In this document: piece by piece, positions 11,321-33,178 of the stretch
How positions within the stretch are numbered: position 1 is the first letter of the stretch
How the letters are laid out: every line of letters starts with the position of its first letter
DNA from: an uncultured Bacilli bacterium
Lineage (GTDB): Bacteria > Bacillota_I > Bacilli_A > RF39 > UBA660
Length of the DNA stretch: 64,000 nucleotides
Assembly (NCBI GenBank): GCA_934085585.1
Contig: CAKOHI010000001.1
Span: 8,549 to 72,548 of the forward strand
Reading direction: 5' to 3'
The notes under the pieces: generated by a model
Told to the model about the DNA's origin: nothing
What the model saw: only the letters and a program-made list of their open reading frames with translations
The model's database searches: none
Position numbers and translations under genes: made by a program

Positions 11321-13039
11321 TTATTTGCTTAACTCGACATTATTTACAAATAACTTATAGCCTTTTTGATCAATGTTTGAGTAAGTTGTATCTTCATCTT
11401 CTAAACTGGTAACATATGTATCCGCGGTCAATTTTATCTTTGAATTTTTATCTATTTTTAATGTTATTTCTTGTGCTGTATTATTAGTGTTTATGGCTCC
11501 TTCGTAATATGAATTATTATTTAAAGTCATATCTAATGTTGATATTGAATCAACATCAATATTACCATTTATTTTTTGATTAGTTAAAGTAAGTGTTACA
11601 TTTCCACCATTTGAACCATTAGATCCCCATGAATCTTCTTTTATTCTTAAAAAATTTCCTGATTTATCATTATTTGTTATAGTATTATTTTCAAGGATTA
11701 TGGTTGCTGTTGTGTTAGTAACATAAAATGTATCTCCTTGATTAGTTATAATATTACTATCTTTAGCACTAAATGTTGCTGTTCCTACGGAAGCATCACC
11801 ACTCATTGATTGGTATAAAAATATATTTTTATAAGTAGTTGATTGGCCATTTAATGTGTTATTTGTATCTGTTAAAGTTACATTATTTAATGAAACACTA
11901 TTTTTTCCTTCAATAACAACACCTTCAGATGCTGTACTTGTTAATGTTGCATTTGATACAGTTATATTGGCTGTTGAATAAACACTTGGTGATCCTTTTC
12001 CTGTTGTCTTGTATGTTCCTCCATCAACATTTACATTTCCTCCACCTCGATCAGATCTTATCGCAGCACCAGATGTACCTGATGTTTCAATAGTTAAATT
12101 TGAAGCATTAGTTGTTCCACCACCAGTTGTCATAATACCTCCGGCATTATCACCACTCGTTGTTATTTTTGTGTTACTAATATTTACTGTTGTTTTATCA
12201 CTAGATGAATTATTAGTTGTTGCACTTCCACCATAACTAAATACTCCGTTGGCACCATCAGCTGTTGTATTTATATTAGAATTATTTATAGTTAATGTTG
12301 CTCCATCTTTAGCTATTATTGCAGAATTTGTTCCATAAAAATTAGAATTATCTCCGGTTGTGGAATCTCCACTTTTATTTATTATGATGTTTTCCAAGGT
12401 AACATTTGCTTTGCTTACAGATATCGCATTTTCTTCAGCAGTCTTTGATGTGTATTCTTCATTTTCAATGGTTTTATCTTCCATTATAGATGCTACACTT
12501 TGATATGTTGCATTACTATTATTGTTATTTTGAGTTTCTTTATTTGCATTATCATTTTTTAATACAACATTATTTGTAATAACACTACTACCTAAAGTTA
12601 TAAGGCCAGTTAAAATTATTAGTGATAATAAGGAAATAATTACTTTATCTTTATTTTCAAACGTTTCTTTGATATTTTTCTTATTAAAATTTGACATTAT
12701 TAAATATATAATTAATGTTGATAAAATTAAACCTTCAATAGTAAAGGCTATATAATATCCCGTTGTAATGCTTGATGTTTCTTTTTCACTTGGCATATTT
12801 CCCATTTCGGGAGGAATACTTCCATCATTATTTGGCATTTGGGGTCTTTCATTATCTGATGTGTTATTACTATCTGGTTTTTCTGGTGGTGTCCCCATCT
12901 CATTGGAATTATTTTGAGGTTCCATCATATTTTCGTTTGATGTAATATGATTTTTGGCATAATACATTGTAAAATCAATTGATGCAATTGTTAAAATAAT
13001 AAGAATTACTATTATGATATTTTTATTTCTTCTTTTCAT
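11321..13039 (-). CDS. polytopic membrane-anchored parallel beta-helix repeat protein
   Basis: Three predicted TM segments with a Pro/Asn-rich loop. Then a long Thr/Asn/Gly-rich repeat region (TTSGDNAGGIMTTGGG, TSGAAIRSDRGGG, GKGSPSVYSTANITVSNATL). Immediately downstream of the two-component system. Confidence 0.55.
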   Translation of the reverse strand: MKRRNKNIIIVILIILTIASIDFTMYYAKNHITSNENMMEPQNNSNEMGTPPEKPDSNNTSDNERPQMPNNDGSIPPEMGNMPSEKETSSITTGYYIAFTIEGLILSTLIIYLIMSNFNKKNIKETFENKDKVIISLLSLIILTGLITLGSSVITNNVVLKNDNANKETQNNNNSNATYQSVASIMEDKTIENEEYTSKTAEENAISVSKANVTLENIIINKSGDSTTGDNSNFYGTNSAIIAKDGATLTINNSNINTTADGANGVFSYGGSATTNNSSSDKTTVNISNTKITTSGDNAGGIMTTGGGTTNASNLTIETSGTSGAAIRSDRGGGNVNVDGGTYKTTGKGSPSVYSTANITVSNATLTSTASEGVVIEGKNSVSLNNVTLTDTNNTLNGQSTTYKNIFLYQSMSGDASVGTATFSAKDSNIITNQGDTFYVTNTTATIILENNTITNNDKSGNFLRIKEDSWGSNGSNGGNVTLTLTNQKINGNIDVDSISTLDMTLNNNSYYEGAINTNNTAQEITLKIDKNSKIKLTADTYVTSLEDEDTTYSNIDQKGYKLFVNNVELSK

Positions 13040-13141: not shown

Positions 13142-14356
13142 TTATTTTTTAAATAAAACCTTAAAAGTGGTTAACCCATCTTTTGATGAAGCACTGATTA
13201 CTCCATTGTGATTTATGACAATATTTTTAGCTATGGCTAATCCCAGTCCATATCTAGATTGGCTTCTATTTCTCGATTTGTCACTTCGATAGAATCTTTC
13301 AAATATTTTTTCTTCTTCACCAGGTAAAATTTCTTCACCTTCATTTACTACCAAAAGTTCAATATTTTTATTTTCTTCTTTTAATGTAACTTTAATTGTT
13401 CCTTTTTCTTTAGAATGTTTAACTGCATTATCTAATAATATTTCTATGAGTTCCTTGATGTTGTTCTCATTTAAATTCATTTTAATATTTTCTTTGATGT
13501 CATAATTTATTTTAATTTTCTTCTCATATGCTATTCCCTCGAATGTTAAAAGAGACAATTCTATGATTTTTGATAAGTTTTCCTCTTTATAAATAACATT
13601 ATTTTTTCCTTCACTTTTAGCTAGTTCTAACAACTCAATAATTAAGTTATTCATTCTTTCTGATTCATTTTTTATATTGTCTAGCCATTTAGTCTCTTTA
13701 GGATTATCTGCTAGGGCTTCTGCACTTGCCATTATAACGGAAAGCGGAGTTTTAAGTTCATGTGAGGCATCAGCAATAAATTCTTTTTGACGGTTGAAAC
13801 TCTCTTTAACCGGCGTAGTTATCCATTTAGTTATTATTTTAGTTAAATATATTATTAAAATTTCCAAAATTATAAAGATTAAAAGTGATGTAATAAGATT
13901 TGATTTTAATTCTTTATTAATATTTGTATTATCTAAAATAACAAGACTTCTTTGATCATATTTGTAACTATACTTTTCAAAATAAAGATTACCAATGTAT
14001 TTATTTTTAAAATTTTTGCTATTTAGGATTTTTGTTGCTATGGTAGAAATTTTTTCTGTTGATAAAGAATTATTAGAATGGTTTATAATTTCTTTGATGT
14101 TAGCATCTTCTAAAATAACTGTATACATAGTTGTATCCATAAATTTTATATTTTTATTTAAAGGTTCTGCGGGTTCATTTTCAGGTTTATCCGGAGGATT
14201 ATCTTTATTAAATTTTTCTTCAAGATTTAAACTATTATCTACTTGTCTTTGCTTATTTAAATAATTTTGTGTATTAAAAATAACTATAAAACTTAATAAA
14301 CTTATCGTTAAAATAAAAAGAATTGTAAAATATATTTTATTATTTAATTTTTTCAT
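13142..14356 (-). CDS. sensor histidine kinase (HisKA/HATPase_c)
   Basis: Two TM helices flank a sensor loop of about 130 aa. H-box FIADASHELKTPL, N-box LDNAVKHS, G-box GLGLAIAKNIV. Confidence 0.9.
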   Translation of the reverse strand: MKKLNNKIYFTILFILTISLLSFIVIFNTQNYLNKQRQVDNSLNLEEKFNKDNPPDKPENEPAEPLNKNIKFMDTTMYTVILEDANIKEIINHSNNSLSTEKISTIATKILNSKNFKNKYIGNLYFEKYSYKYDQRSLVILDNTNINKELKSNLITSLLIFIILEILIIYLTKIITKWITTPVKESFNRQKEFIADASHELKTPLSVIMASAEALADNPKETKWLDNIKNESERMNNLIIELLELAKSEGKNNVIYKEENLSKIIELSLLTFEGIAYEKKIKINYDIKENIKMNLNENNIKELIEILLDNAVKHSKEKGTIKVTLKEENKNIELLVVNEGEEILPGEEEKIFERFYRSDKSRNRSQSRYGLGLAIAKNIVINHNGVISASSKDGLTTFKVLFKK

Positions 14357-15027
14357 TTTGCCTCCAGCTTATAACCTAAATTTCTTACGGCTTTTATATT
14401 ACATGTTGAACCAATGGCTTTTAGTTTTCTTCTTAAAAATGTTAAAAAAACTTCTAAATTATTTGATTCAATATCACTGTCAATTCCCCAGACTTTATCA
14501 TATATTTGCATTTTAGATAAAATTTGTTCTGGATTATTTAAGAAATATTCTAAAAGTTGAAATTCTTTGCATACTAAATCTATTGAATCATTTGTTTTTT
14601 TACATGTTAATTTTGACTTATCTAAATCAAGTGTTAAGTCTTGATATTCTAATACATTTTTATTTGTTAAATTATTTTTTAATTGAATATTTATTCTTGC
14701 TACAAGCTCATCCATGTGAAATGGTTTAGTAATATAATCATTTGCACCATGTTCTAATCCATCTAATTTATCTTCTATTGTGCTTTTAGCTGTTAACATT
14801 ATTATTTTACTTGTTATGTTATCTTCACGTAATTTCTTTAAAATTTCAAATCCATCCATATTAGGTAGCATTACATCTAGTATTATTAAATCATAAGCAT
14901 TGGTTGTGGCATCAAAATATCCATCTAATCCATCTGTTTTAATATCCACGAGATATTTTTCTTTTTTTAGGCTTGCTTTTATGGCATCTGCTAAATTAAA
15001 TTCGTCTTCAATAATTAAAATTCGCAT
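14353..15027 (-). CDS. OmpR-family response regulator
   Basis: Receiver domain (DLIILDVMLPNMDG, ...LTAKS) plus a C-terminal winged-helix domain. There is a 4-nt overlap with the kinase gene. Confidence 0.92.
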   Translation of the reverse strand: MRILIIEDEFNLADAIKASLKKEKYLVDIKTDGLDGYFDATTNAYDLIILDVMLPNMDGFEILKKLREDNITSKIIMLTAKSTIEDKLDGLEHGANDYITKPFHMDELVARINIQLKNNLTNKNVLEYQDLTLDLDKSKLTCKKTNDSIDLVCKEFQLLEYFLNNPEQILSKMQIYDKVWGIDSDIESNNLEVFLTFLRRKLKAIGSTCNIKAVRNLGYKLEAK

Positions 15028-18021: not shown

Positions 18022-19647
18022 TTAGTCATTTTCTTCTTCAAGCATTTCATAATGTAATACTATATCTCTATCATAATATGTAATACGCCCACTTGGTAAA
18101 AGTAACATTCTATTAATATTTAAATTATCTACAAAATCTAAATTGTGAGAAACTACTAGCATTGTTCCTTCATAATTTTTAAATGTATCGGAAATTATTA
18201 ATTGTGTCATAGGATCCAAATGGTTGGTTGGTTCATCTAAAAGTAATGTATTTGCACCAGTTAAAGATATTTTGGCTAATGCTACTCGGCTTCTTTCTCC
18301 CGGAGATAAAACATCTACTTTTTTAAAAATATCATCTCCAGAAAATAAGAAATTACCTAACATTCTTCTGATTTCATAATCTGCAAGGCCAAAGTTAGCA
18401 AAATTTTCTAAAATTGTTTTATTTGATTCTAATATTTCATGTTCTTGAGCATAATATGCAATATCTGTTTTTTCTGTAATTTCAATATTTCCATCAAGCG
18501 GAGTTAGATATCCCATTATTAAACGAAGTAAAGTGGTTTTACCTATACCATTTTCTCCTACTACTAAAAGTTTTTCTCCACGTGATAAATCAAATGTTAA
18601 ATTTTCATATAAAAGATTTTCCTCATTATAGCCAAAAGTTAAATTATTGCATTTGATTGGGATACTATAGCTTGGTCTATTTATTTTCATATTAAATTTT
18701 GTGTATTTGTTCTTTTTTTCAAGTTCAACTTTTTCATTTTCTAACTTTTCAAGTTTTTTTATCCTGTCTTTAGCAATGTTAGCTTTTTTTTCATTACCAC
18801 GAATATATTTAGCTATTATATTTTTTAATTTTTCTTCTTCTTTTTGTTGACGTTCATATAATCTTTTCTTGGCTAAATCTCTCTCATTTTTTATTTTTAT
18901 ATATTTTTCATAGTTTCCATTGTAAATTTCTATGTTATGTTTTATTTTATCCACATAAAGTGTTTTTTTGGTTACTTCATTTAGAAAATCAACATCATGT
19001 GATATTACCAAAATGATACCATGATAGTTTTTAAGGTAGTCAATAATATAATCTTTAGTATCCAAATCTAGATGATTAGTTGGTTCATCAAGTAACATTA
19101 TTTCTGGATTCGAATATAAAAGTTTTGCAAAAGCTACTTTAGATTTTTGACCACCAGAAATGTTTTTTAATTTTAAATCAAGTAGGGCATCATCTATTTT
19201 CATGCCACTTATTATTTTAAGAAGATGACTTTCAGCATTATATTCGTCATAGTATTCTAAAAGGTCACTAACATGATTTATTTTTTTATAATATTTTTTT
19301 AATTCATATTCATTTTGAATGTTTGCAATGGTTTCATAAAGATTATTTAATTCTTCTTTTAGTTTTTTTATTGGTCTACCTTCTAGTAAATATTCAAATA
19401 CAGTTTCTTCTTCACTACTTGCTTCATCCATAATAACTTGGGGTAAATATCCAAGACTTATTTTGGTGTTTAATGAAATATTTCCGGAATCTGGTATTAA
19501 GTTACCTAATAATATATTAAATAAAGTTGATTTTCCCGCGCCATTAACACCAATTATACCTACTTTATCATTGTTATTTATTTGAAATGATACATTATCA
19601 AAAATAACTTGAGTTCCAAATGACATACTTAAATTTTCTATTTTCAA
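18022..19647 (-). CDS. ABC-F family ATPase (two ABC domains, no TM domain)
   Basis: Two Walker A motifs (GVNGAGKST, GENGIGKTT), two LSGG-type signatures (ISGGQKS, LSPGERS) and a charged linker. Track start is GTG at 19656. The TTG at 19647 has better SD spacing (AGGAAGTGG). Confidence 0.85.
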   Translation of the reverse strand: MKIENLSMSFGTQVIFDNVSFQINNNDKVGIIGVNGAGKSTLFNILLGNLIPDSGNISLNTKISLGYLPQVIMDEASSEEETVFEYLLEGRPIKKLKEELNNLYETIANIQNEYELKKYYKKINHVSDLLEYYDEYNAESHLLKIISGMKIDDALLDLKLKNISGGQKSKVAFAKLLYSNPEIMLLDEPTNHLDLDTKDYIIDYLKNYHGIILVISHDVDFLNEVTKKTLYVDKIKHNIEIYNGNYEKYIKIKNERDLAKKRLYERQQKEEEKLKNIIAKYIRGNEKKANIAKDRIKKLEKLENEKVELEKKNKYTKFNMKINRPSYSIPIKCNNLTFGYNEENLLYENLTFDLSRGEKLLVVGENGIGKTTLLRLIMGYLTPLDGNIEITEKTDIAYYAQEHEILESNKTILENFANFGLADYEIRRMLGNFLFSGDDIFKKVDVLSPGERSRVALAKISLTGANTLLLDEPTNHLDPMTQLIISDTFKNYEGTMLVVSHNLDFVDNLNINRMLLLPSGRITYYDRDIVLHYEMLEEEND

Positions 19648-19712
19648 ATGTACCACTTCCTTTCTTTTGAAATTATAATAAAATATAAGTAATTAGTCAA
19701 CGAAAAAGTCTG

Positions 19713-20060
19713 CTAGCACTTTAGCAGACTAATTAAAAATAGAATTATTCCAACAAATAAATATATATTTATTAAATTATTAGTTGTCCCATATATTTCA
19801 AGAAATCCTCGCATTAAAGAGTAAATTGTTAAGGTTATTGCCCCAGTTGTATATAAACCCAGATTTAATTTAATTACTTTCCTTGTTTTTAATATTTTTA
19901 AAATTATATCAAATATTAAAGGAATTATAAAAGCATAAGTCATAAATATAGAATATACATTATGAGAAAAAAGATTATAAATTTGGGCAAATATAAATGT
20001 AACTATTATTATAATTAAATATATTTTTTTGTAGTTAGTAACCGATGTATACAATATCAC
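19713..20060 (-). CDS. small polytopic membrane protein (last gene of the VTC operon)
   Basis: 115 aa with 4 hydrophobic segments. Overlaps the upstream gene by 26 nt. A hairpin (agtctgctag...ctagcagact-like) spans its stop. Confidence 0.5.
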   Translation of the reverse strand: MILYTSVTNYKKIYLIIIIVTFIFAQIYNLFSHNVYSIFMTYAFIIPLIFDIILKILKTRKVIKLNLGLYTTGAITLTIYSLMRGFLEIYGTTNNLINIYLFVGIILFLISLLKC

Positions 20061-20895
20061 TTACCATCCTTTCTGCTATCTTTTTACCATTTGTGGTTGG
20101 ATTATTAATAACTTTACCATTAAAATACATTGTATTTGATCCACCGCCATCTAAATTATATAAAGTTTTTACCCCAATAGATTTTGCAAATGTAGCAAGT
20201 TGGTAAAGTGATAAGCCTTTATTTTCATTTGTTCTTCCGTCTGATACAATAAATATATAATGGTTTTCATCTATTATACCAAGTGCTGTTCGTGGATTAC
20301 TAGCCATAGATTTACTAACTTCTTTAGTTTCATTTATGTTAATAACTCCATCAATTAATAGTGCTGGACCAAAAGATAGTACTTGATATGCTCCTTTTTC
20401 TTTTAGTTTTTCAAGGCTAACGTTTTTTTCATTTATTATTTCAAATGTACCATTTTCATATATTACTAAATCTTCTTGATTAGATTTTGGTTTATCTCGA
20501 TATATTTCTCCGTTTCTTAAAACATATCCTGATTCTTGAACTCCATAATAATCTCCATTTATAGCAAGTATGGCATTATTTGCTGAAGCAATACTAGAAG
20601 TTTTACTTGTTACATTTTTTCCATAAGAATTATTAGCAAATGCTGTTTTTAAATAATTACTACTAGCATATATATTTGCTACATACATATTTGTATTATA
20701 TTCTCTGTATGTTGATATATCTATTTTAATGTTTTCATCTTCATAAGAATTATCAGTGTATGTACCATTGTAATTTATTGTACTTATATTATCTACTTTT
20801 TTATAGACTTTTGTTAATACTAATGTGTCTAAAATAACATAAACTGTAAAACTCGTTAACATGATGTAATATATGATTAAAGCTCTTTTTTTCAT
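20035..20895 (-). CDS. phosphodiester glycosidase family protein (NAGPA/DUF2233-like), membrane anchored
   Basis: N-terminal TM. AILAINGDYYG, NPRTALGIID..., SDGRT...GLSLYQLA..., NLDGGGSNTM match the family blocks. Confidence 0.8.
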   Translation of the reverse strand: MKKRALIIYYIMLTSFTVYVILDTLVLTKVYKKVDNISTINYNGTYTDNSYEDENIKIDISTYREYNTNMYVANIYASSNYLKTAFANNSYGKNVTSKTSSIASANNAILAINGDYYGVQESGYVLRNGEIYRDKPKSNQEDLVIYENGTFEIINEKNVSLEKLKEKGAYQVLSFGPALLIDGVININETKEVSKSMASNPRTALGIIDENHYIFIVSDGRTNENKGLSLYQLATFAKSIGVKTLYNLDGGGSNTMYFNGKVINNPTTNGKKIAERMVSDIVYIGY

Positions 20896-22445
20896 TATCT
20901 TCTTGGTCCACCTTGATTATTAGGTCTACCTGATGGATTACGGCTAGATGTTTCAGCTGTTGTAGAAATGTTATTAATTGTAATAACTTGTACTGATACG
21001 CCATTAATTTTTATTGTGTAAGTTTCTCCATCTTTTAAAGATTTGCTACTATAACATAATGATGAAAATGATTTTTTAGCAGTGTAAGAAAAAACTTCCT
21101 TATTTGAACTATCAACAATGGAAATTACATCATTTGAATTATATGTATTACTAAAATTGACTAAAATACCATATTGAGTTGAAGTGTTTGAAATTCCTTG
21201 TGCCATACCACTTGAACCAACTGCTACTAATGTACCACCAGATATAATTAATTCTTTATCATAATCCAATGCACCATCACCATTACTAGTTGGTCCATCG
21301 ACATATACCGAACCTCCATAAATATAAATACTTCCATTTGCATCTAATCCGTCACCGGAAGCATTAACACTTATATCTCCGCCATTTATTGTTAATGTTG
21401 CTGTTGTATTTGTTTTCCCAGTGGCATTTATTCCATCATCACTTGCAAATATGTTGATAACTCCATTGTTAATAACTATATTTTGAGCTTCTAAACCTTC
21501 GTAAGATTTGTTAATAACTATATTACCATCTTCAATTATAAGTTCATTATCAGCGTGAATACCGTCATCTTTCGGATATATTTCAAAATTTCCATTATTT
21601 ATTTTTATATTATTATTTGAATGAATTGCATCATCTGTTGTATTTATATTAAATTTGCCTCCGTTTATTAAAATAAGATTAGATGATTTTATTCCTTTGG
21701 CACTATCACTTTCATTTGTACTTGTCGTTGTTATATTAAATGTACCTCCATCAATTTTAACATAACCTTTTGTAGTATCAGTTTCATTTGTGGATTTTAT
21801 CGCATCACATACACTAGTAATTGTAATATTTCCATCTTTTATATATACAGAGTCTTTTCCACGTATACCATCATCTTTTGCATTAATTATATATGTTCCA
21901 CTATTAATGAGAAGATCATCTTTAGAAACAAGTGAATCACCTTTATTACCATTTAATATTAATGTTCCAGTTCCTTCTAAAACTAAATCATCTTTACTAA
22001 AAATAGCTCCTTCAATTCCGTCATCAAATCCAGTATAAGTACTTGAATCACTTAAAGTATTGGTTGTACCTTCCATTGTACTTATTATCACATTATCAGC
22101 ATTTTTAACATATATTGCTGGACCATTATCACTAGTTATGGTTACACTATTTAATATAAGTTTGACATTTGCATTTGTATTAATTGTAATATTTCCAGTT
22201 AAGGTTCCGTTTAAAGTATAAACTCCAGGATTTGTAATTGTTAAAGATTCACTTAATTCAATATTTTTTTCTTCATAATTATCCCAGTTTATATCATCAC
22301 TCGAAGTATCAATGTTTATACTAGTTTCTATATCAATTATATTACTATTTTTATTTTTGTAGAAATAATATAATAAAATACCTAGGATAATAACTAAAAC
22401 TATTGGTATAACTATCCACAATTTCTTTTTATAGGTCACATCCAT
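20895..22445 (-). CDS. Cthe_2159-type carbohydrate-binding beta-helix protein, N-terminal TM anchor
   Basis: VYTLNGTLTGNITIN...VKLILNSVTITSDNGPAIYVKNADNV...GAIFSKDDL. Then periodic (D/G)D(G/A)I(R/H/K/N) turns: DDGIRGKD, CDAIKSTN, DDAIHSNN, DDGIHADN, DDGINATG, GDGLDANG. Confidence 0.8.
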   Translation of the reverse strand: MDVTYKKKLWIVIPIVLVIILGILLYYFYKNKNSNIIDIETSINIDTSSDDINWDNYEEKNIELSESLTITNPGVYTLNGTLTGNITINTNANVKLILNSVTITSDNGPAIYVKNADNVIISTMEGTTNTLSDSSTYTGFDDGIEGAIFSKDDLVLEGTGTLILNGNKGDSLVSKDDLLINSGTYIINAKDDGIRGKDSVYIKDGNITITSVCDAIKSTNETDTTKGYVKIDGGTFNITTTSTNESDSAKGIKSSNLILINGGKFNINTTDDAIHSNNNIKINNGNFEIYPKDDGIHADNELIIEDGNIVINKSYEGLEAQNIVINNGVINIFASDDGINATGKTNTTATLTINGGDISVNASGDGLDANGSIYIYGGSVYVDGPTSNGDGALDYDKELIISGGTLVAVGSSGMAQGISNTSTQYGILVNFSNTYNSNDVISIVDSSNKEVFSYTAKKSFSSLCYSSKSLKDGETYTIKINGVSVQVITINNISTTAETSSRNPSGRPNNQGGPRR

Positions 22446-23103
22446 CTTCTTCTCTTTCTAGAACAATTTTTAAATTGCCATTTCTTGTTCTTAATTTATC
22501 TATAAATTCTTTTTCAGATATTTCTTTTTTAATATTTACCTTATAACTTAATTCAAACATACTTCCCATGTTAGTTGTTTTAGTTTTTTCTAATATAGCC
22601 TTATTTGTACATTCATTAAATATATCTTCAAAAACATTATCGTACTCTAAATTTTCTGGTATTAATATTTTTAATTTTTTTTCTCCTTTTTCTTTTTCAA
22701 AAATATTAACTTTATTTAATAACAATAATAGTAAACATCCAATAACAGTTAAAATAATTGCAAACCATATTTGACCCATGCCACAAGATAAACCTACAGC
22801 CATAGCAAAGAACACTATTAATATTTCTTTTGATGTACCTGGTATACTTCTAAATCTTACTAAACTAAATGCTCCCATTATGGCTACAGATGTGCCTAAA
22901 TTGCCATTTACCATTAACATTACTGCTTCCACTAATATTGGTAAAAGTGATACAGTTATTAAAAAATTCTTGCTATATCTAGATGTTTTTTTATGTGTTA
23001 AAGCTATAATAAAACCTAATATTATAGCTATGATCATACTAATTAATACTTCAGTTAAACCAATAGAACTGGAAGCACTTGATCCAAAAATACTGTTAAG
23101 CAT
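22429..23103 (-). CDS. DUF4956 family membrane protein
   Basis: Four TM segments with GAFSLVRFRSIPGTSKEILIVFFAMAVGLSCGMG, the family's conserved core, plus a soluble C-terminal domain. Overlaps both neighbouring genes. Confidence 0.75.
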   Translation of the reverse strand: MLNSIFGSSASSSIGLTEVLISMIIAIILGFIIALTHKKTSRYSKNFLITVSLLPILVEAVMLMVNGNLGTSVAIMGAFSLVRFRSIPGTSKEILIVFFAMAVGLSCGMGQIWFAIILTVIGCLLLLLLNKVNIFEKEKGEKKLKILIPENLEYDNVFEDIFNECTNKAILEKTKTTNMGSMFELSYKVNIKKEISEKEFIDKLRTRNGNLKIVLEREEDGCDL

Positions 23104-23788
23104 TTTTCACCATCTCCTTCATTTCACGCTCATATATTTTTCCGTATTTTGAAAAACTAGTTGGGTATATCTCTAGTTTTGATAAACTTCTTGCAAGCCA
23201 TAACGGTAAAGCCCCGATAGTTTTAATTTCCATTATGTAGTAATCTTCATTAAAGTATTTCTTCATTTTTATTTCTTTAAAATTTAAATCATTTCTTCGG
23301 CTTCTTAAATTACTATCAAACGTTATTCTTAAATTGCTATCTTCTTTACCTTTATAACTTTCTCTGTCATAAGCAATATATATTGCCTTTTGTAAATTAT
23401 AAAATTTGTAATAATATATTATTTCTTTTAATATTTTATTATCTGTTTCTTTATTATTTTCTAAATAGTCATCTATTTCATTTAATTTTACCTTTATTCT
23501 TCTTTTACCTACCACTCCTTTATATTTTGTTTTCATTTCTAGAAATACATAATCATTATATTTTGGTATACCATAACTTCTTATTCTAAATTTATCCTTA
23601 TATATTGGCTTTTCTAATGAATTAATTATTAAATCATTATTTTTGGTGTCAAAGTAAATATTATGTATTTCACTTTTAAAATACTCATCTTCTTTAATAT
23701 AACTATTTATTATTTTTAATAATTTTTCTTTATCTTCCTTTGTTATTACATATTTTTCTTCCACTCTTTGAAAGTTATTTATGTACAT
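23096..23788 (-). CDS. VTC-domain (polyphosphate polymerase-like, triphosphate tunnel) protein
   Basis: EEKY..., IHNIYFDT, FRIRSY, FLEMKTKYKGVVGKRRI, YIAYDRESY, RITFDSNLR, YIMEIKT match the beta-barrel strands of the VTC/CYTH tunnel fold. AAAGGAGG RBS. Confidence 0.8.
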   Translation of the reverse strand: MYINNFQRVEEKYVITKEDKEKLLKIINSYIKEDEYFKSEIHNIYFDTKNNDLIINSLEKPIYKDKFRIRSYGIPKYNDYVFLEMKTKYKGVVGKRRIKVKLNEIDDYLENNKETDNKILKEIIYYYKFYNLQKAIYIAYDRESYKGKEDSNLRITFDSNLRSRRNDLNFKEIKMKKYFNEDYYIMEIKTIGALPLWLARSLSKLEIYPTSFSKYGKIYEREMKEMVKNA

Positions 23789-23979
23789 GAATTCCTCCTT
23801 TCATGGTTTCATTGTATGTTATAAAAATTAAATGAAAGTTAAATATCTGATTAAATAATAATACATTAAAAAAGATAATATTTTTAAAAACATTATCTTT
23901 CAAATCGTAAAACATAACTTCAAAATTAATTGCTATTATTAGTAACATAATATTTCATAATTCGATATGTGTTTTATTA

Positions 23980-26187
23980 TTATTTTAAATTTTTTTCTAA
24001 TATTTTATTTAAAGCTTCGTTTCCTTTTTCTGTTAAATGAATACCATCTGCCATAACATAATCTTTATTTTTTTGTATTTTTCCGTAAAAATTAATTATA
24101 GTAACATTATCATAATTTCCTAAACTATCTAATGGTTTTCCACTTGATAATATATATATTTTGCTATCTTTACATAACTCTATTAATTCTTGATATTCTT
24201 TTGTAGAAATAACTGTTGAATTATCGAATGCAAGCACTATTTCATTTGATAAAGTATTTTCTTTTAATGATTTTTCTATACTTTCTTTTAAATCTTTGTA
24301 ACTAAAATCTTTATTTACTACAAATCTAGCATCACTAAAGTTAGTTTGTAATTTTTCAAAATCATAGAATAATATATCATTTCCATAAAAAGTCATTTTC
24401 TTCTTTAATTCTTCTTGATGCTCTCTAATCAACTCTTCTTTTTTTATTTTAAATTGATCTTTATAAACATCTAAAATTGCATTATATACAATATTCGTAT
24501 ATTCTTTTCTTCCAGTTGGTGGTAAATGTATTCCATCAGCATAGAACCAATCACTGTGTCCTTTTGATAAACTATACCAATCAATTACATGTAAATTGCT
24601 ATACTTTTCTGATAGTTCATTTATGGAATCATTAACATAAGTATAATTTGTTGTATTTATCCAAAATACTGTTCGATCTGTTAATAAATCCATTATTTTT
24701 TCTTTACAATTATTTTTACAATCTCCATTTGTACCAAGATGGATTACTACAGGATCTCCAAGTTTTTTGGAATTTTTTAATTCTTCTATTAATGTGTATC
24801 CTACATATGTTGATCTTGATTCTTTTGAATCAAAATAACTATTTGGAAATGCTTTTTTCAAATTATTCATTGCTCCGAGCATTACTGAATCTCCGATAAA
24901 AGTTACAGGCAATTCTGATGTCATTTGTTCATAATTGCTAGAATCTTCTAATTTTTCTAGTTCTTTTGTCCAATCTTCTTCCTCTTTTTGTTCTAGAATT
25001 TTATATTCAGCTTGCTTTTCTAACATTATTTTTTCATTTTCTGCTAATTCAAGTTCTAATTTTTTCATTTCTTTTTCATGAGATTTGGTAGTAATATATT
25101 TAAAGCCTCCGAATAAAGATAAAATTACAACTGCAATTAATAATATTTTTCTTATTTTTTTCATATTTTCCCTCTTATTTACTATAAAATGTATTATGTA
25201 TGAAATAATTACCACTATAATTATTATTAATGGAGTTTTAAAATAATGATTAATATTTATATATTGAAATAAAAATATAACTGGATATTGTACTAAATAT
25301 ATTTCATAACTAATACTTGATATACTTTTTATAATTTTATCAAATCTATTTAATGGTTTATTATTTACTGTTGCATAATCAATTAATCGACATGATATTA
25401 ATGTTACTAAAATCATGCTTAATACAAAGAATTTGGACGTTGATTTTACAAAAATAAATAAAATGATCATTATTATTAAATATAATACATATATTATGTG
25501 ACGTAATGGTTTTTTCTTTACTTTTTCTGGCACTAATGGTTTGTAATATGAATGAATAAATCCTAGTGATAAGCCAAATAGTATGGAGTAAACTCTAGCA
25601 AAAGTGTTATAATACGCATTCATTAAATTTGCACTTAGACTACATTTATAAAAGTAAGCAGTTCCAATAATTGCCAAAAATAAAGATATGGCACAAGGAA
25701 AAGCTTTGTTTACTTTGTCACCAAGTTTTTTTAATCCTTTAAAAATAAAAGGAAATACAATATCAAATTGTAATAAAATTGCTATATACCATAAGTGCAT
25801 AAATGGAGAATCAACATGTCTTGCAAAATAATCTAAATTTGCACTGATTTGCCAAAAATTATTATACCCAAGTAATATTGACGTTGTTTCATTTTTTAAA
25901 CTTAACCAATATATATTATTAAACATTGAAACCACAGCAATTGATATAAAAACTACTATAAGTAAAGGGACATAAAGTTTTAAAAATCTATTTTTATAGT
26001 ATTCTTTATACGAAAAATTTTTCTTTTTAAAACTAGATATACAAGATAAATAGCCACTTAAAACAAAAAAGGTACAAACAGCTAAATATCCGCCCTTTAG
26101 TATTCCTATATGATATAATAATACTGCTATACAGCATATAACTCTTATTAAATCTAACTCTTTATAATATTGTTTTTTTACTTTCAT
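23980..26187 (-). CDS. OatA-like O-acetyltransferase (acyltransferase-3 membrane domain plus SGNH domains)
   Basis: N-terminal polytopic acyltransferase-3 region (LDLIRVICCIAVLLYH...). C-terminal FIGDSVM...DGIHL and a second ...ADGIHLTEKGN. I prefer the start at 26187 (MKVKKQYY). Confidence 0.8.
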   Translation of the reverse strand: MKVKKQYYKELDLIRVICCIAVLLYHIGILKGGYLAVCTFFVLSGYLSCISSFKKKNFSYKEYYKNRFLKLYVPLLIVVFISIAVVSMFNNIYWLSLKNETTSILLGYNNFWQISANLDYFARHVDSPFMHLWYIAILLQFDIVFPFIFKGLKKLGDKVNKAFPCAISLFLAIIGTAYFYKCSLSANLMNAYYNTFARVYSILFGLSLGFIHSYYKPLVPEKVKKKPLRHIIYVLYLIIMIILFIFVKSTSKFFVLSMILVTLISCRLIDYATVNNKPLNRFDKIIKSISSISYEIYLVQYPVIFLFQYININHYFKTPLIIIIVVIISYIIHFIVNKRENMKKIRKILLIAVVILSLFGGFKYITTKSHEKEMKKLELELAENEKIMLEKQAEYKILEQKEEEDWTKELEKLEDSSNYEQMTSELPVTFIGDSVMLGAMNNLKKAFPNSYFDSKESRSTYVGYTLIEELKNSKKLGDPVVIHLGTNGDCKNNCKEKIMDLLTDRTVFWINTTNYTYVNDSINELSEKYSNLHVIDWYSLSKGHSDWFYADGIHLPPTGRKEYTNIVYNAILDVYKDQFKIKKEELIREHQEELKKKMTFYGNDILFYDFEKLQTNFSDARFVVNKDFSYKDLKESIEKSLKENTLSNEIVLAFDNSTVISTKEYQELIELCKDSKIYILSSGKPLDSLGNYDNVTIINFYGKIQKNKDYVMADGIHLTEKGNEALNKILEKNLK

Positions 26188-26287
26188 TATAACACCCCGA
26201 CACAAATCTATTTTTAACGTATTCATTATATCACGGAAACTCTTATTTAATAAAGATTTTTAATGGCATTTGACATTAGTTTATTAA

Positions 26288-26894: not shown

Positions 26895-27577
26895 TTAAAA
26901 TATTTTTACAAGATTTAATATTGCATTTGTACTTACATCAAACTCAATCGTAGTATTTGAAGTTGTTCTTACACAAAGTTGTATAATATCATTTTCCAAT
27001 AAGGGAGATATTATTGTATTACTATATCTATTTATTGCTGTTCCTTCCCAGTAAGAATTAGTATTTGATGCTGGTGATATTTGTAAAATATCCCTTACCA
27101 TTGGTTTTCCACTAAATAAATATGATTTAAATAAATTCCACTTTCTTTTATAACAATTGAATCGATTGTGTTTAAATCAACATTTACAAAAGATCCTTTA
27201 TCTGCTAAATTGTTGTTTCTGTTCCATCTATAGTTATAACTTCGCTTATACTTATTTCGCCCGGAAAATCTTGAAGTCCAATTGGACCACGATCTTCTTT
27301 ATCTCCTTTTTCACCTTTAGGCCCTTGAATTCCATTTGGTATATGAACCTTTAAAACCGCATCTTCTTTTGTACCAATATTTTCAACAAAAGCATTTTCT
27401 GTTGAACCAAGAGTTATTGTTTCACCAATTCTAATCGTTGCTGGTCCTGGGATCTCCCTTATCTCCCTTGGTACCTGTTGGTCCTTCAACATAAAAGTAT
27501 TTTAAGTTCTTATTTGCTTCTTCAACTAGTCGTTTTGCTTTACTGCAATTGTCATTGAAATTACAATTTTTATTCAT
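26895..27577 (-). pseudogene. collagen-like / BclA-C1q-like surface protein, decayed (at least 3 frame breaks)
   Basis: ATG at 27577 (GAAGGAAG RBS) gives ...YVEGPTGTKGDKGDP, then a stop. Shifting frame at a C3 run (about 27449-27451) gives GPATIRIGETITLG...GIQGPKGEKGDKEDRGPIGLQ. Two more shifts lead into a C-terminal jelly-roll-like domain ending ...AILNLVKIF. Confidence 0.6.
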
Positions 27578-28758: not shown

Positions 28759-29877
28759 TTATTTTACTTCATTTGAATCAACAACAATTAACGGTATATA
28801 TACTTCTTCATCTGAATATCCGGCATGTTGTGAAGTTAATGGGTAATCACCTTTATAAATAAAAGCCTTTTTAGTATAAGATATTGCAATATAATCACCT
28901 AATTCACTTCTAAACTTTTTGTTTTCTTCTCCATCTCCAAACAATTTCATGTTTATGATTTCACTTTTTGTAAATAAATAAAAATAATTTCCAAAATATT
29001 TTTCAAATAAATACTCAAAAGTTTTTTTCATATTATTTTTTACAAAAAAAGCTGTTGTTCTAGGTTCAATTGATGGTAATTTTTCTAAACAATCTAAAAG
29101 GTCTTGATAATTTTCTAAAAATATATTTTCTGCGTTTAAATGTCCGTGATCAGCTATAACAAAAATCAAAGTATCGTTTAATTTTTGTGCTAATTTATAA
29201 ACTCTATCTTGCATATTTACAATAATATTTTTTATTTCGCTATTGTCAGTACCTAAATCATGTAATGTATAGTCTGGTTCATCATAATATGAATAAATAT
29301 ATTTTTTTTCATTAATATTACATAAATTTTCTATTTTATTAAACATATCATCTAAATCAGTATATTTTTGATCATCAAATGGAATGACTTTATATCCTTT
29401 AAATTTTGTTTCTTCATTTATTCTATCCGTAACTTCTTTTTGCGTTAAATATTTTTTTATGTATTCTGTTGCACTATCTAAAACTTTGTTATCTTCATCA
29501 CCCTTTGATGATTTAGCAAATGTAACAATTGTATCGTCACATTCATCAAAATACATAGTCCACCCTAGCATTCCCGTTTCACACGGATTTAATCCAGTTC
29601 GCATACTTGTAGTGGCAGCAACAGTTGTGGCAGGAAAAACTGTTGAAATACTTTTTATTCTATTTTTTATAAAAAATGAATCTTTTGTTAAATGTTTATC
29701 TAATAAAGAATTCCCCATTCCATCTAAAAGAATAGTTACCACATTTTTTGGCTTTTTTTCTTCAAGCAATTTATCAATATAATCTATGGTATTATGTTTA
29801 TATGAAGATCCAAAGTATTTTGAAATTGAGCATGCTAAATTAGTAAGGCATTCATTATAGTTGTTTTTTAACTTCAT
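28759..29877 (-). CDS. alkaline-phosphatase superfamily protein (nucleotide pyrophosphatase/phosphodiesterase-like)
   Basis: TILLDGMG (metal Asp), FPATTVAATTSMRTGL (nucleophile Thr block), IADHGH. No signal peptide. The second ATG (29877) has better SD spacing than the track start at 29883. Confidence 0.7.
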   Translation of the reverse strand: MKLKNNYNECLTNLACSISKYFGSSYKHNTIDYIDKLLEEKKPKNVVTILLDGMGNSLLDKHLTKDSFFIKNRIKSISTVFPATTVAATTSMRTGLNPCETGMLGWTMYFDECDDTIVTFAKSSKGDEDNKVLDSATEYIKKYLTQKEVTDRINEETKFKGYKVIPFDDQKYTDLDDMFNKIENLCNINEKKYIYSYYDEPDYTLHDLGTDNSEIKNIIVNMQDRVYKLAQKLNDTLIFVIADHGHLNAENIFLENYQDLLDCLEKLPSIEPRTTAFFVKNNMKKTFEYLFEKYFGNYFYLFTKSEIINMKLFGDGEENKKFRSELGDYIAISYTKKAFIYKGDYPLTSQHAGYSDEEVYIPLIVVDSNEVK

Positions 29878-30493
29878 TTTCATTGCTCCTTATTATCCAA
29901 TATAGATCTTGTATAGTATGATTTTTATCAACTATATAACAATCTATCCCTACGTTATCAGCACCAACTTTATCACTTTTGATACTATCACCAATCATAA
30001 TACAATCTTCTTTGTCGGTTTTGCCAATTGCTAATTTAAAGGACTCTAAATCAGGTTTCATCGCATTTTCACCAGCTACAATTTTATCAATATATTCAAG
30101 TAATCCAGCTCTTTTTAATCTTGGAATTTGTGTTCCACTAAACCAACTAGTTAAAATAACTATTTCTTTACCATTTTCTTTTAAATATTTAAATAATTCT
30201 AAAGTACCTTCTACTACTTCATCCACAATTGTTTTTCCATTATATAGCATCCAACCATTAATAACATCTTCGGTCACAGTAAAACCATATTTTCTAAAAT
30301 AATCACTTAATGTCTTTGTATCATATTTTGGAAATTCATGTTCATATTTATTTAAAATATCTTGTTTTTGTTTAAAAAATTCTTCTTGTTCTTTTAAAGG
30401 AATATTTAATTTAAAATAATCATCTTCTTTAGACCAATCTGGAATTAATATTGTATAATCTATATCAAAAATATATTTTTTATAATTTTTCAT
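29855..30493 (-). CDS. HAD-superfamily hydrolase
   Basis: Motif I is FDIDYTIL, motif II is LTSW, and motif IV is MIGDSIKSD. Start moved to the ATG at 30493 (GGAGGAG RBS). Overlaps both neighbours. Confidence 0.8.
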   Translation of the reverse strand: MKNYKKYIFDIDYTILIPDWSKEDDYFKLNIPLKEQEEFFKQKQDILNKYEHEFPKYDTKTLSDYFRKYGFTVTEDVINGWMLYNGKTIVDEVVEGTLELFKYLKENGKEIVILTSWFSGTQIPRLKRAGLLEYIDKIVAGENAMKPDLESFKLAIGKTDKEDCIMIGDSIKSDKVGADNVGIDCYIVDKNHTIQDLYWIIRSNENEVKKQL

Positions 30494-31139
30494 CTGTACT
30501 CCTCCATTTAAATAAAGCATATATATTTATTAATAAATACATAATGGACATTAATAAAACCATGAGTGAATCAAACCCACCACTACTGTAATTAATTATC
30601 CATAATATTAAATCTAAAACATTGTTTATTAAATATAATATCCAAGATTCATTATATCTTAACATTAATAGTATACCAGCAATAAAACTAATAACGTTAG
30701 TAAAAGAATCTAAATATGTTAATCGTTCCCCGGGAATTAGCCCCAATAAATAGGCAACAATTAGTCCAATAATAATTGCTGTAATAATTGTAATAATTCC
30801 GTTTTTAACACCTAATCCTCTATTTTCTACTAAATCCTTATTTGAATTATTATTCCATTCAAAATAACCTTTAATATTAATTGGCATAAAAAGAAATAGA
30901 TTAAATATTACCAAGCCATAATTATTATTTTTAAAAGCAATATATGATAAAACAAGATTATTAACAATACCTATTAGAAAATTTATCTTATTACCTATAC
31001 TACCGTAATAACTATTTAATATTCCAGTTATTAATACTATTATTCCTAATAATGTGTTATCTGTGGTTAAACCAATAATTGTAGATATAATACATACTAA
31101 TAATGGAATCAATATTTGCTTCAATTTTATCTTTTTCAT
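30480..31139 (-). CDS. pnuC: PnuC-type nicotinamide riboside transporter
   Basis: 219 aa with about 7 TM helices. The Trp-containing segments (WILYLINNVLDLILWI...) are typical of PnuC. First gene of a three-gene overlapping operon. Confidence 0.65.
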   Translation of the reverse strand: MKKIKLKQILIPLLVCIISTIIGLTTDNTLLGIIVLITGILNSYYGSIGNKINFLIGIVNNLVLSYIAFKNNNYGLVIFNLFLFMPINIKGYFEWNNNSNKDLVENRGLGVKNGIITIITAIIIGLIVAYLLGLIPGERLTYLDSFTNVISFIAGILLMLRYNESWILYLINNVLDLILWIINYSSGGFDSLMVLLMSIMYLLINIYALFKWRSTDEKL

Positions 31140-31327
31140 TTTTCACCTTCTTTCAAGTGTAAAATATTTGAAGCACATAATTTCAAACTAATTATACCAT
31201 TAACCCACTAAAAAATATAGTTAAAATGAACTTTATGAGTTTAATTTTGGATTAATATTAAAAAAATTTGTTTAGCCATTTTAAGTTTTTATCTGTAAGA
31301 AATGAAAGGCGTGGATAGTATAAAAAA

Positions 31328-31353
31328 TGTTGATAACAATTAAGTTATCAACA
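31328..31353 (-). terminator. conserved palindrome family member c (TGTTGATAAC-aattaa-GTTATCAACA)
   Basis: Lies 3 nt after the stop at 31357. A6 on the plus side. Confidence 0.65.
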
Positions 31354-31356
31354 CAA

Positions 31357-32055
31357 TTATGACATTAATCTTTCTAATTTGATTTCTTTAGAAATTGTAT
31401 CATTCATTATTTCTATAAATCTTTCGTTAGAAATATTAACTAGTAATTTTCTTATTTCGTCTTCATTTAAGTGAGAAATAATGTTCATTATATATTCATA
31501 TTCCATTTCAAATAACATTTTTTCTTTATATTTTTGAATATTTTCTTGCCAATATTGTGTTTGTTTTAATTCATTATAATATGTATTAATTATAAATATC
31601 AAATATTCTTTTAATTGCTTTTCTAGTTTTAAATCTGTTATTCTAATTTCTAAACTAATATTCTCTAGTGAAATCCCTGGTGTTATATAAAAATCATTAT
31701 TTTTAGAAAATGATAAAGTAAATGAAATGGAATTACTATTTACATTGAAGCTGTATACTACAGGAAAATTCGCTAGTAGATAATCAATTAATACTTTTAA
31801 AGTACTAATGCTTAAAAAATAATTAGTTGTTAATTCTCCATTTTCCGCACTGCTTTTACAACTTTCTGTACCATCGAGAACACTAATAAATGTGTATGGC
31901 AAATTATCTATTTCCACTAGATTTATTATTATGTCTGTTGATGGTCTTTTAAAACTTGGCATATCTAAATCTACTCTTGGTGTTTTAACGGGATGCAATT
32001 CATTTATTAAACTAATTATTCTTTCTGTTATATCTTTTTCTTTTGTTATTTCCAT
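31357..32055 (-). CDS. hypothetical protein (232 aa)
   Basis: Start moved to the ATG at 32055 (GGAGG 9 nt upstream; the track start is TTG at 32103). No recognisable motif. The C-terminal half is a helical, charged region. Confidence 0.5.
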   Translation of the reverse strand: MEITKEKDITERIISLINELHPVKTPRVDLDMPSFKRPSTDIIINLVEIDNLPYTFISVLDGTESCKSSAENGELTTNYFLSISTLKVLIDYLLANFPVVYSFNVNSNSISFTLSFSKNNDFYITPGISLENISLEIRITDLKLEKQLKEYLIFIINTYYNELKQTQYWQENIQKYKEKMLFEMEYEYIMNIISHLNEDEIRKLLVNISNERFIEIMNDTISKEIKLERLMS

Positions 32056-32194
32056 GACCAAAACCTCCATTCTATTTTTAAAATGCGTAAATGTTTCATT
32101 CAAACTATTCTATAATCTGTCAATATATTTGTTTCTTATTAACTATTTTTTATACCACTATCTTTTTTTATCACAATTAAATAAATAAAAAATA

Positions 32195-33079
32195 TTAGTC
32201 GGTTATTAAATTATTTTCTTCTTTCACCTGTTTTTGTAACACTTCTAAATCTTTAATATTCTTATTTTCTTTTAATACTTTCATTTGTCTTCTTGCAGAA
32301 TTATTAAGTTTTATCAATCTTTCTCTTTGAGGGATTTTTTCCTCAATTAACTCTGCATTTGTATTTTGCAAATTGTTTAATATTACTAAATGTAATAAAT
32401 CAGTATAATCTCTTATATTTCCACTTTTAGCAAGTTCTGGGTTTTCTTTTCGCCATTCTTTAGCTGTCATACCAAATAAGGCAACATTTAAAACATCAGC
32501 TTCTTCGGCATAAACGAATTTTTTCTGTTCTTCAGTAAGTGCTGGAACGATATATGTTTTTACCGCATCCGTATGAACTACATAGTTTAATTTGGATAAA
32601 ATTCTATTTGCTTGCCAATCTATTTTTTCTTGGTATGCTTCATTTGCTTTTAATCTTTCAAACTCTGTTATTAAATATAATTTAAATTCTGGAGATAACC
32701 AACTAGCAAACTCAAATGCTATATCTGGATGAGCATATGTTCCAATACTATATCTTCCACCTTTTGAAATTATTCCTATTGCATTAGTTCTTTTTATCCA
32801 TTGAGACGGGGACATTGCAAATGAATTTTTGCCATATTCTGTTTTAATTTGGTCGAATTCGACCAAATTAAAATTTTTATTATGAATTTCTTCCCATAAA
32901 CCAATATAATCAATTGTGGTTATTCTTCTTAACCAATTTTTCACTGTAAAAGATGGATCACTAGAATTTTGATATTTTGCCAAGTCAGTTAATGATATAT
33001 AACTTACTTTTCCAATTCTTAATATTCCTATTTTATTTTCCTTAACAATTATTTGTGCTTTTACTAAATCATTTTTCAT
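32195..33079 (-). CDS. KilA-N domain-containing protein
   Basis: ...ISLTDLAKY..., ...YAHPDIAFEFASWLSPEFKLYLITEFERLK is the KilA-N core. The C-terminal coiled region is typical of phage or ICE cargo. Confidence 0.75.
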   Translation of the reverse strand: MKNDLVKAQIIVKENKIGILRIGKVSYISLTDLAKYQNSSDPSFTVKNWLRRITTIDYIGLWEEIHNKNFNLVEFDQIKTEYGKNSFAMSPSQWIKRTNAIGIISKGGRYSIGTYAHPDIAFEFASWLSPEFKLYLITEFERLKANEAYQEKIDWQANRILSKLNYVVHTDAVKTYIVPALTEEQKKFVYAEEADVLNVALFGMTAKEWRKENPELAKSGNIRDYTDLLHLVILNNLQNTNAELIEEKIPQRERLIKLNNSARRQMKVLKENKNIKDLEVLQKQVKEENNLITD

Positions 33080-33178
33080 TTTTTATCTCCTTTCAATTTT
33101 TATATTTTAAAAAGTATTAAATAATTTATTTTTTAATTATAATCTTCATTATAAAAATTTAGTATTTTTTTAAATTCT

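Follow-up and report, generated by a model that had tools for sequence, protein, structure and literature searches.

Five overlapping genes of an uncultured gut Bacilli bacterium join a VTC-DUF4956 module to a NAGPA-type enzyme and its unannotated membrane partner

The 64,000-nucleotide stretch of DNA analysed here, which we call the window, comes from an uncultured Bacilli bacterium and carries on its minus strand five overlapping genes, g1 to g5, that form a single, well-delimited transcription unit (Table 1). This operon joins two independently conserved cell-envelope modules. Module A consists of g1, a VTC-type protein, its near-obligate partner g2, a DUF4956 membrane protein, and g3, a Cthe_2159-type beta-helix protein; module B, which is rarer, consists of g4, a NAGPA-family phosphodiester glycosidase, and its obligate partner g5, a small membrane protein. 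The operon is real and a good candidate for experiments. The window as a whole is a housekeeping stretch of chromosome with a low GC content (about 25%). The identical locus is found in several gut metagenome assemblies, including one from a Hadza human-gut sample, and the genomes closest to the g1 locus carry the label uncultured Bacilli.

The genes run from 23788 to 19713, and all the reading frames and overlaps described in the first-pass annotation of this DNA lie where it had placed them. Consecutive genes overlap by 8 nt (g1/g2), 17 nt (g2/g3), 1 nt (g3/g4, TAATG) and 26 nt (g4/g5). That annotation had taken the overlaps to imply stoichiometric co-translation; they fit translational coupling, and the sequence goes no further than that. 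The promoter-like site upstream of g1 is a candidate only, because such sites are as frequent in the window as in shuffled AT-rich DNA (84 observed against 82.5 expected from shuffled sequence).

Table 1. The operon, its flanking signals and possibly associated genes, in window coordinates
Feature	Position	Strand	Basis or remark
g1, VTC-type protein, 230 aa	23096..23788	-	open reading frame (ORF) list
g2, DUF4956 membrane protein, 224 aa	22429..23103	-	ORF list
g3, Cthe_2159-type beta-helix protein, 516 aa	20895..22445	-	ORF list
g4, NAGPA-family phosphodiester glycosidase, 286 aa	20035..20895	-	ORF list
g5, small 4-helix membrane protein, 115 aa, GTG start	19713..20060	-	ORF list
Shine-Dalgarno sequence AGGAGG, 5 nt before the g1 ATG	23794..23799	-	direct sequence reading
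Candidate promoter-like site TTGAAA-17-TATTAT, 10/12 positions	23875..23903	-	in the 191-nt gap between g1 and the acyltransferase gene upstream
Intrinsic-terminator-like 9-bp hairpin and T-run, overlapping the g5 stop	19707..19730	-	free energy (dG) -12.9 kcal/mol, z -3.28
OmpR-type response regulator	14353-15027	-	Pfam
Histidine kinase	13142-14356	-	Pfam
Membrane-anchored protein of family k10, 572 aa, possibly associated	11321..13039	-	N-terminal hydrophobic segment

The division into two modules emerges from gene neighbourhoods in other genomes. Across 80 species loci anchored on VTC genes (46-81% identity to g1), a g2 homologue follows the VTC gene in 78, and a Cthe_2159 homologue follows, tightly spaced, in 66. 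The VTC-DUF4956 pair also stands alone amid housekeeping genes in some Lachnospiraceae, and we therefore regard it as the minimal unit. Homologues of g4 and g5 are much scarcer in the same set: g4 is present in 8 of the 80 loci and g5 in 7, always directly after g4. We also assembled 80 metagenomic loci anchored on g5 (36-50% identity) and counted neighbours where the flanks were long enough, that is, at least 900 nt upstream for NAGPA, at least 2.1 kb upstream for a GT2-GtrA gene and at least 5 kb on both sides for VTC. NAGPA lies directly upstream of g5 on the same strand in 60 of 61 testable loci. A GT2-GtrA gene is present in 29 of the 48 loci with sufficient upstream DNA; it encodes a GT2 fused to a GtrA/DPMS membrane domain, and in the VTC-anchored set it directly precedes NAGPA-g5 in L028, L043, L047 and L069. 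Judged by sequence, this fusion has the domain pair of a polyprenyl-phosphate sugar synthase. Among the 23 long-flank loci, 8 have VTC within the flanks and 15 do not.

The two modules meet in several ways. Six-gene versions that run VTC-DUF4956-Cthe_2159-GT2/GtrA-NAGPA-g5 occur in L086, L115, L119, L150 and L166, the modules stand in reverse order in L028 and L091, and Cthe_2159 adjoins NAGPA-g5 in the VTC-free loci L097, L107, L108 and L168. The junction turns up far more often, and in more layouts, than chance would account for. Its recurrence in varied orders (L028, L091, L086, L115, L150, L166) therefore points to a functional link between the modules and not to one obligate machine. The first-pass annotation had pictured a single five-part machine and proposed co-conservation of the five genes as a check. 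The shared operon stands, but it is the junction of two modules rather than an obligate unit, and co-conservation fails in that NAGPA and g5 accompany only 7-8 of the 80 VTC-anchored loci. In one VTC-free locus (L087, 989-10221), GT2/GtrA-NAGPA-g5 directly follows genes for Wzz, a CpsD-like kinase, a CpsB phosphatase and LemA; unannotated proteins, one of 536 aa and one of 586 aa, border the triad. This arrangement links the NAGPA-g5 module to capsule-type regulation.

The last gene of the operon is easily overlooked. The exact g5 protein is missing from a collection of 15 billion proteins in which g1-g4 of the identical operon occur on 26-32 contigs, and gene callers left g5 uncalled in all five loci shown for that operon. 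Where homologues have been called, they overlap NAGPA by similar lengths (26 nt in L086, L087, L089 and L090; 20 nt in L091). Because it is conserved with invariant motifs and keeps a similar NAGPA overlap in other loci, g5 is a real gene, unannotated, widespread and commonly skipped by gene callers. A word-index search had returned 19 clusters, which suggested a tiny orphan family; this was overturned by an exhaustive profile search, which found 1,390 cluster representatives at E<=1e-3 and 841 at E<=1e-10. The AlphaFold2 (AF2) model of g5 is a confident four-helix bundle (predicted local distance difference test, pLDDT, 84), in agreement with the small four-transmembrane (4-TM) protein expected from the first pass, and the invariant motifs FSH (residues 31-33) and IYGTTN (89-94) fall in two loops predicted to face outward. 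Searches of g5 with Foldseek, Pfam and NCBIfam returned no match, and none of 49 diverse family members matches a common Pfam or NCBIfam family. A GtrA-type flippase (PF04138) was considered and rejected, as neither g5 nor 48 diverse members of its family matched that model.

The other four proteins belong to recognizable families. All four calls made in the first pass (VTC, DUF4956, Cthe_2159 and NAGPA) passed a profile check, with Pfam scores above the curated cutoffs, and the motifs cited for them are present: FRIRSY, RITFDSNLR and YIMEIKT in g1, FSLVRFRS in g2 and the DD[GA]I turns in g3. Prediction likewise bore out the proposed topology, in which g1 is soluble, g2 and g5 are membrane proteins, and g3 and g4 are extracellular and N-terminally anchored; g1 and the C-terminal domain of g2 would be cytoplasmic, and g3, g4 and the conserved loops of g5 would be exposed on the outer side. 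None of the five proteins matched an NCBIfam model. A PADLOC scan of g1-g5 gave zero matches to its defence-system protein models, and an anti-phage defence reading was rejected on this ground.

The partner of g5 is readily identified. g4 matches Pfam NAGPA (PF09992) with 126.7 bits (1.4e-36; cutoff 25), and its PDB matches include the vertebrate uncovering enzyme (6pki, 4.6e-8) and a DUF2233 protein (3ohg, 8.7e-10). It has a single N-terminal membrane anchor and an intact DGGGS motif at residue 249, a motif described as critical for substrate recognition and catalysis (2026 JBC paper, PMC13474241). These features sustain its description as a membrane-anchored NAGPA-type phosphodiester glycosidase. 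The assignment of g3 as an externally displayed Cthe_2159-type beta-helix is also borne out, with 274 bits to Pfam Cthe_2159 (PF14262; 1.4e-81), a match to PDB 4peu (3.9e-26) and a single N-terminal hydrophobic segment as its membrane anchor. The protein is acidic (61 D+E against 36 K+R) and has five DD[GA]I turns, at residues 141, 191, 271, 293 and 336.

g1 matches the Pfam VTC family (PF09359, triphosphate-tunnel or TTM superfamily) over positions 2-229 of the 235-position profile (133.4 bits, 1.3e-38; cutoff 23). It is a VTC domain alone: by Pfam and hydrophobicity it has neither an SPX domain nor a membrane segment, and it is basic (47 K+R against 36 D+E). The best PDB match of an 18-homologue g1 profile is the catalytic domain of the yeast polyphosphate polymerase Vtc4 (7.8e-11), whereas the non-catalytic Vtc2 and Vtc3 match more weakly (1.6e-5 and 1.2e-4). 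Counting along the printed profile alignment, we mapped Vtc4 residues K200, R264, R266, E279, K281, K294, Y359, R361 and R373 to g1 residues K12, R68, R70, E84, K86, K99, Y140, R142 and R154, respectively, each of which is invariant in the 18 homologues. The tunnel Lys, Arg and Glu residues, whose loss the first-pass annotation had said would count against its interpretation of g1, are thus kept over the alignable part. Further on, the full profile ends at Vtc4 residue 386, and a sub-profile built from the last third of g1 gave no hit in the PDB at E<=10. Here the invariant E187-x-K189 and S213-K214 are motif-level candidates for Vtc4 E426 and S457/K458, of which K458 is the catalytic lysine (PMC4641920). 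According to Martinez et al., TTM hydrolases carry an acidic patch, and Vtc4 has basic residues that guide the chain away (PMC4641920). The first strand reads R8-x-E10-x-K12 in g1, R196-x-T198-x-K200 in Vtc4 and E-x-E-x-K in hydrolases, so that position 1 of the patch is basic and Vtc4-like in g1 and position 2 is hydrolase-like; the other two positions are not alignable.

The membrane partner of g1 matches Pfam DUF4956 (PF16316) with 58.5 bits (9e-16; cutoff 30.6), as do all 32 aligned homologues. Its AF2 model (pLDDT 70) places five helices within residues 16-131, followed at residues 141-217 by a beta-alpha-beta-beta-alpha-beta (ACT-like) domain (pLDDT about 65-70). The DUF4956 call and its core motif therefore stand, but the four membrane helices assigned in the first pass become five, with a soluble C-terminal domain in addition. 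From the distribution of charge, three parts are predicted to be cytoplasmic: the loop formed by residues 38-46, the loop with the conserved RFRSxPG motif, and the C-terminal domain. A Foldseek search for channel-like or VTC-like structure in g2 gave weak matches of the C-terminal domain to ACT/PII-like folds (E about 0.01) and nothing else. At the level of sequence profiles, the family resembles MgtC/SapB while falling below the membership cutoff: 24 of 32 members match MgtC (PF02308) sub-threshold, with 16.2 bits against a cutoff of 31.4, over profile positions 1-119 of 121. Independently, a 2025 mBio paper assigned an MgtC membrane domain and an ACT domain to the Streptococcus intermedius homologue of g2.

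Genetic data exist for a related gene group. The VTC-DUF4956 pair, together with CotH, has been recorded as a set of accessory genes at Gram-positive pel loci and in NELoc-2 of Clostridium perfringens. In artificial sputum medium, S. intermedius lost more than half of its aggregation when the DUF4956-type gene or CotH was deleted, and the level of Pel was higher in the DUF4956-type mutant and lower in the CotH mutant. The first-pass statement that the VTC-DUF4956 pairing has no assigned function therefore needs qualifying: no biochemical function has been published, but knockout phenotypes exist. Within the literature that we searched, subscription-only papers lying outside it, no biochemical function was assigned to bacterial VTC-domain proteins, DUF4956 or bacterial NAGPA homologues.

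Collectively, the operon anatomy, the families, the invariant tunnel residues, the topology, the co-occurrence, the intact DGGGS motif and the S. intermedius knockouts are consistent with a model in which the two modules together would remodel a phosphate-containing surface glycopolymer. In this model, g1 would dock on g2 on the cytoplasmic side of the membrane and use nucleoside triphosphate to build a phosphate chain, which g2 would couple or pass to the outer face. There, g3 would bind or handle an anionic surface polymer, and g4, held at the membrane by g5, would cleave or transfer a sugar attached via a sugar-1-phosphate diester; the substrate of g4 could be a polyprenyl-phosphate sugar or a wall phosphoglycan. 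Control would probably be exerted by the nearby two-component system. Export of polyphosphate (polyP) by VTC-DUF4956 is plausible. The export and remodelling model as stated is tentative, and we put its chances close to, and a little short of, even.

Several points weigh against this model. All five genes occur together in only a minority of genomes, and a GT2-GtrA gene, which would supply the polyprenyl-phosphate sugar, was not found in the 64-kb window. Being acidic, g3 could bind a polyanion only via bridging cations. In g1, the invariant E10 is a glutamate of the kind found in the acidic patch of hydrolases, the alignment does not reach the positions of Vtc4 E426, S457 and K458, and TTM enzymes with a conserved tunnel centre may be hydrolases rather than polymerases, as is AtTTM3 (PMC4641920). 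Our literature search found no reported activity for any bacterial VTC-domain protein, and the S. intermedius VTC-domain mutant retained aggregation and Pel, with no change noted. Foldseek matched no solved channel to the membrane part of g2, including the transmembrane domains of Vtc1, Vtc3 and Vtc4, and, according to the 2025 mBio paper, MgtC regulates ATP synthase and phosphate metabolism. With no channel matched and with regulators as the closest known relatives, the conduit role given to DUF4956 in the first pass is neither supported nor excluded.

The main rival accordingly assigns the operon a regulatory role without export. On this account, g2 would be an MgtC-like membrane regulator that senses a small ligand through its ACT-like domain, and g1 would make or hydrolyse a cytoplasmic (poly)phosphate or triphosphate signal; the two together would tune the production of a surface polysaccharide, and g3 and g4 would bind or trim that polysaccharide outside. 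The resemblance to MgtC extends across the g2 membrane domain in 24 of 32 members and is joined by the ACT/PII-like C-terminal fold, the described function of MgtC and the lack of a channel-like structural match, all of which fit a regulator; the MgtC matches, however, fall below the Pfam cutoff (16 against 31.4 bits) and come from closely related sequences. A signalling role would also suit the S. intermedius mutants, in which deletion of the g2-type gene raised Pel and the VTC knockout had no noted phenotype. Yet the third gene of the module is nearly always extracytoplasmic (Cthe_2159 here, CotH elsewhere), which suggests that something crosses the membrane, and the basic tunnel residues that guide the growing chain in Vtc4 are conserved in g1. 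We consider the regulatory account somewhat unlikely. Whether g1 acts as a hydrolase or as a polymerase is a separate matter that bears on both models.

Another alternative makes g1 a triphosphatase or nucleotide cyclase of the TTM superfamily instead of a polymerase; what it releases, phosphate or pyrophosphate (Pi/PPi) or else a cyclic nucleotide, would act on g2 locally. Activities in this superfamily cannot be read from the tunnel centre alone, and g1 has its invariant E10 at an acidic-patch position where Vtc4 has Thr; the neighbouring R8, however, is basic as in Vtc4, and by its motif pattern E187-x-K189 appears to replace the ExE of hydrolases. Since g1 also matches Pfam VTC, finds its best PDB matches in Vtc4 and has no CYTH-family match at E<=0.01 in the Pfam scan, we hold this alternative to be improbable. 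A dietary role, in which g3 and g4 bind and degrade plant or host glycans in the gut and g1 and g2 are unrelated passengers, might be suggested by the gut metagenomic origin of the organism, by the C. thermocellum protein Cthe_2159, for which binding of cellulose and polygalacturonic acid and a likeness to PL9 pectate lyases have been reported, and by a dockerin at one distant NAGPA neighbour (L081), but it is very improbable, as passengers leave unexplained the tight placement of Cthe_2159 after VTC-DUF4956 in 66 of 80 species, the locus has no sugar transporter, glycoside-hydrolase battery or sugar regulator, and NAGPA in relatives is tied to a polyprenyl-phosphate sugar synthase and capsule regulators, hence to the cell's own envelope.

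Among the neighbouring genes, those that encode the OmpR-type response regulator and the histidine kinase (13142-15027) sit 4.7 kb downstream of the operon. Pairs of this type recur beside module A and module B in relatives: the window regulator and kinase share 62% and 50% identity with the pair that immediately precedes the VTC module in L036, and 46% and 35% with the one immediately before NAGPA-g5 in L131. The two-component system is thus possibly linked to the operon. The k10 family directly flanks NAGPA-g5 in L131, L144 and L168, and the k10 protein of the window, encoded beside the regulator and kinase genes, has 41-49% identity to the flanking proteins of L131 and L144. A second large protein (9462-11240, minus strand) also has an N-terminal hydrophobic segment; neither has a Pfam match.

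Directly upstream of the operon, at 23980-26226 on the minus strand, is an Acyl_transf_3 protein of 748 aa whose C-terminus gives a weak SGNH/GDSL signal. This OatA-type O-acyltransferase is kept upstream of VTC only in the closest relative, L006. Directly downstream (18022-19656, minus strand) is an ABC-F protein that matches NCBIfam NF000355, 'ribosomal protection-like ABC-F family protein' (420 bits, cutoff 380), and from this match may be of the antibiotic-resistance type. A short minus-strand ORF at 27205-27492 contains a collagen-like G-x-y run (GPKGEKGDKEDRGPIG), and a small collagen-like protein is encoded divergently upstream of the VTC gene in L006, L024, L030 and L040. Farther upstream (28759-33935, minus strand) are a type I phosphodiesterase/nucleotide pyrophosphatase, a HAD hydrolase, a nicotinamide mononucleotide (NMN) transporter and a NUDIX hydrolase, which make up a nucleotide- and phosphate-scavenging neighbourhood with no established link to the operon. 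A release-factor ORF at 8293-9105 (minus strand) matches the PCRF profile only from about position 70 onward, probably owing to the programmed +1 frameshift that is usual in prfB. Two further minus-strand proteins, of 1,086 aa (51495-54755) and 635 aa (45510-47417), have no Pfam match at 1e-5. Up to 62 kb, all ORFs of at least 150 aa with a Pfam match lie on the minus strand; within the final 2 kb (62000-64000) a negative GC skew gives way to a positive one, and no ORF of at least 50 aa is listed after 62053. This end of the window could be a replication-related switch or a non-coding element.

These findings add an unannotated and widespread four-helix partner family for NAGPA-type enzymes, and they place Cthe_2159 and NAGPA-g5 in the position of CotH beside a VTC-DUF4956 module that had already been noted. 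The strict coupling of NAGPA to g5, with its frequent link to a polyprenyl-phosphate sugar synthase, offers a testable lead on the bacterial homologues of the 'uncovering enzyme'. Polyprenyl-phosphate sugars, the product expected of the adjacent GT2-GtrA synthase in relatives, are themselves sugar-1-phosphate diesters. A bolder form of the export and remodelling model would make g1-g2 a synthase-translocase that brings polyP, or phosphoryl groups, to the cell surface and, in addition, make NAGPA-g5 a new type of extracytoplasmic enzyme that uses or destroys polyprenyl-phosphate sugars in place of a GT-C transferase; that both should hold seems to us rather improbable. The known routes of bacterial polyP synthesis are PPK1 and PPK2, and extracellular polyP affects host cells and biofilms. 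If it were true, a working Vtc4-type polymerase with its membrane partner would constitute a third route to polyP and the first candidate for its delivery to a bacterial surface; g1-g2 would be the first bacterial polyP exporter, and an MgtC-like fold would acquire a biochemical role of the transport type. The likeness of g2 to MgtC could illuminate the long-debated biochemical role of that virulence-factor family. Because the locus is common among Bacillota of the gut, the polymer concerned may belong to the envelope of commensals living there.

Among the closest known arrangements is the pel-associated module of S. intermedius (SIR_1594-1592) and C. perfringens (NELoc-2), which likewise consists of a VTC gene and a DUF4956 gene, the latter described as encoding an MgtC-type membrane domain with an ACT domain, followed by a gene for an extracytoplasmic protein. 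There, the extracellular partner is a CotH kinase; here, it is a Cthe_2159 beta-helix, and the operon carries NAGPA-g5 in addition. No pel (pelDEADAFG) or CotH genes were found in the operon, within 10 kb of it or among the 27 window proteins scanned with Pfam, nor was CotH found among the clustered neighbours of the 80 VTC-anchored loci, where annotation covered the commoner clusters only. With the yeast VTC complex (PDB 3G3Q, 7YTJ, 8I6V) the operon shares a homologue of the Vtc4 tunnel domain that keeps the aligned tunnel residues and, as predicted, a geometry in which the enzyme is cytoplasmic and its partners lie beyond the membrane, g1 being genetically coupled to a membrane protein. The yeast complex, however, has an SPX domain, a fused membrane domain and DUF202-type three-helix subunits that form a channel, none of which the operon has; it serves the vacuole, and its Vtc4 has T198, whereas the cell surface is the destination proposed here and g1 has E10.

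The remaining parallels concern single proteins and module B. g2 resembles MgtC/SapB in size and, as predicted, in having about five membrane helices and a soluble ACT-like C-terminal domain; we know of no MgtC that pairs with a VTC-domain enzyme. g3 shares a homologous beta-helix with Cthe_2159 of Clostridium thermocellum (PDB 4PEU/4PHB), but it is longer, membrane-anchored and encoded after VTC-DUF4956. g4 has in common with human NAGPA and the bacterial DUF2233 protein BACOVA_00430 (PDB 3OHG) the catalytic core, the DGGGS motif, a non-cytoplasmic catalytic domain and a membrane tether. Human NAGPA has a C-terminal anchor, an EGF stalk and a propeptide, whereas g4 is anchored at its N-terminus, lacks both stalk and propeptide, and is obligately paired with a four-helix membrane protein and, in relatives, also with a GT2-GtrA synthase. 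Finally, module B recalls Gtr-type glycosylation, which we take to comprise a GT2 synthase (GtrB/CsbB), a small 4-TM flippase (GtrA/GtcA) and a GT-C transferase (GtrC/YfhO). g5 is not of the GtrA family, the outer enzyme has the NAGPA fold and is not a polytopic GT-C, and GT2-GtrA is absent from the window; in relatives, three comparable elements stand together, a GT2 with a GtrA-type domain, a small four-helix protein and an extracytoplasmic enzyme.

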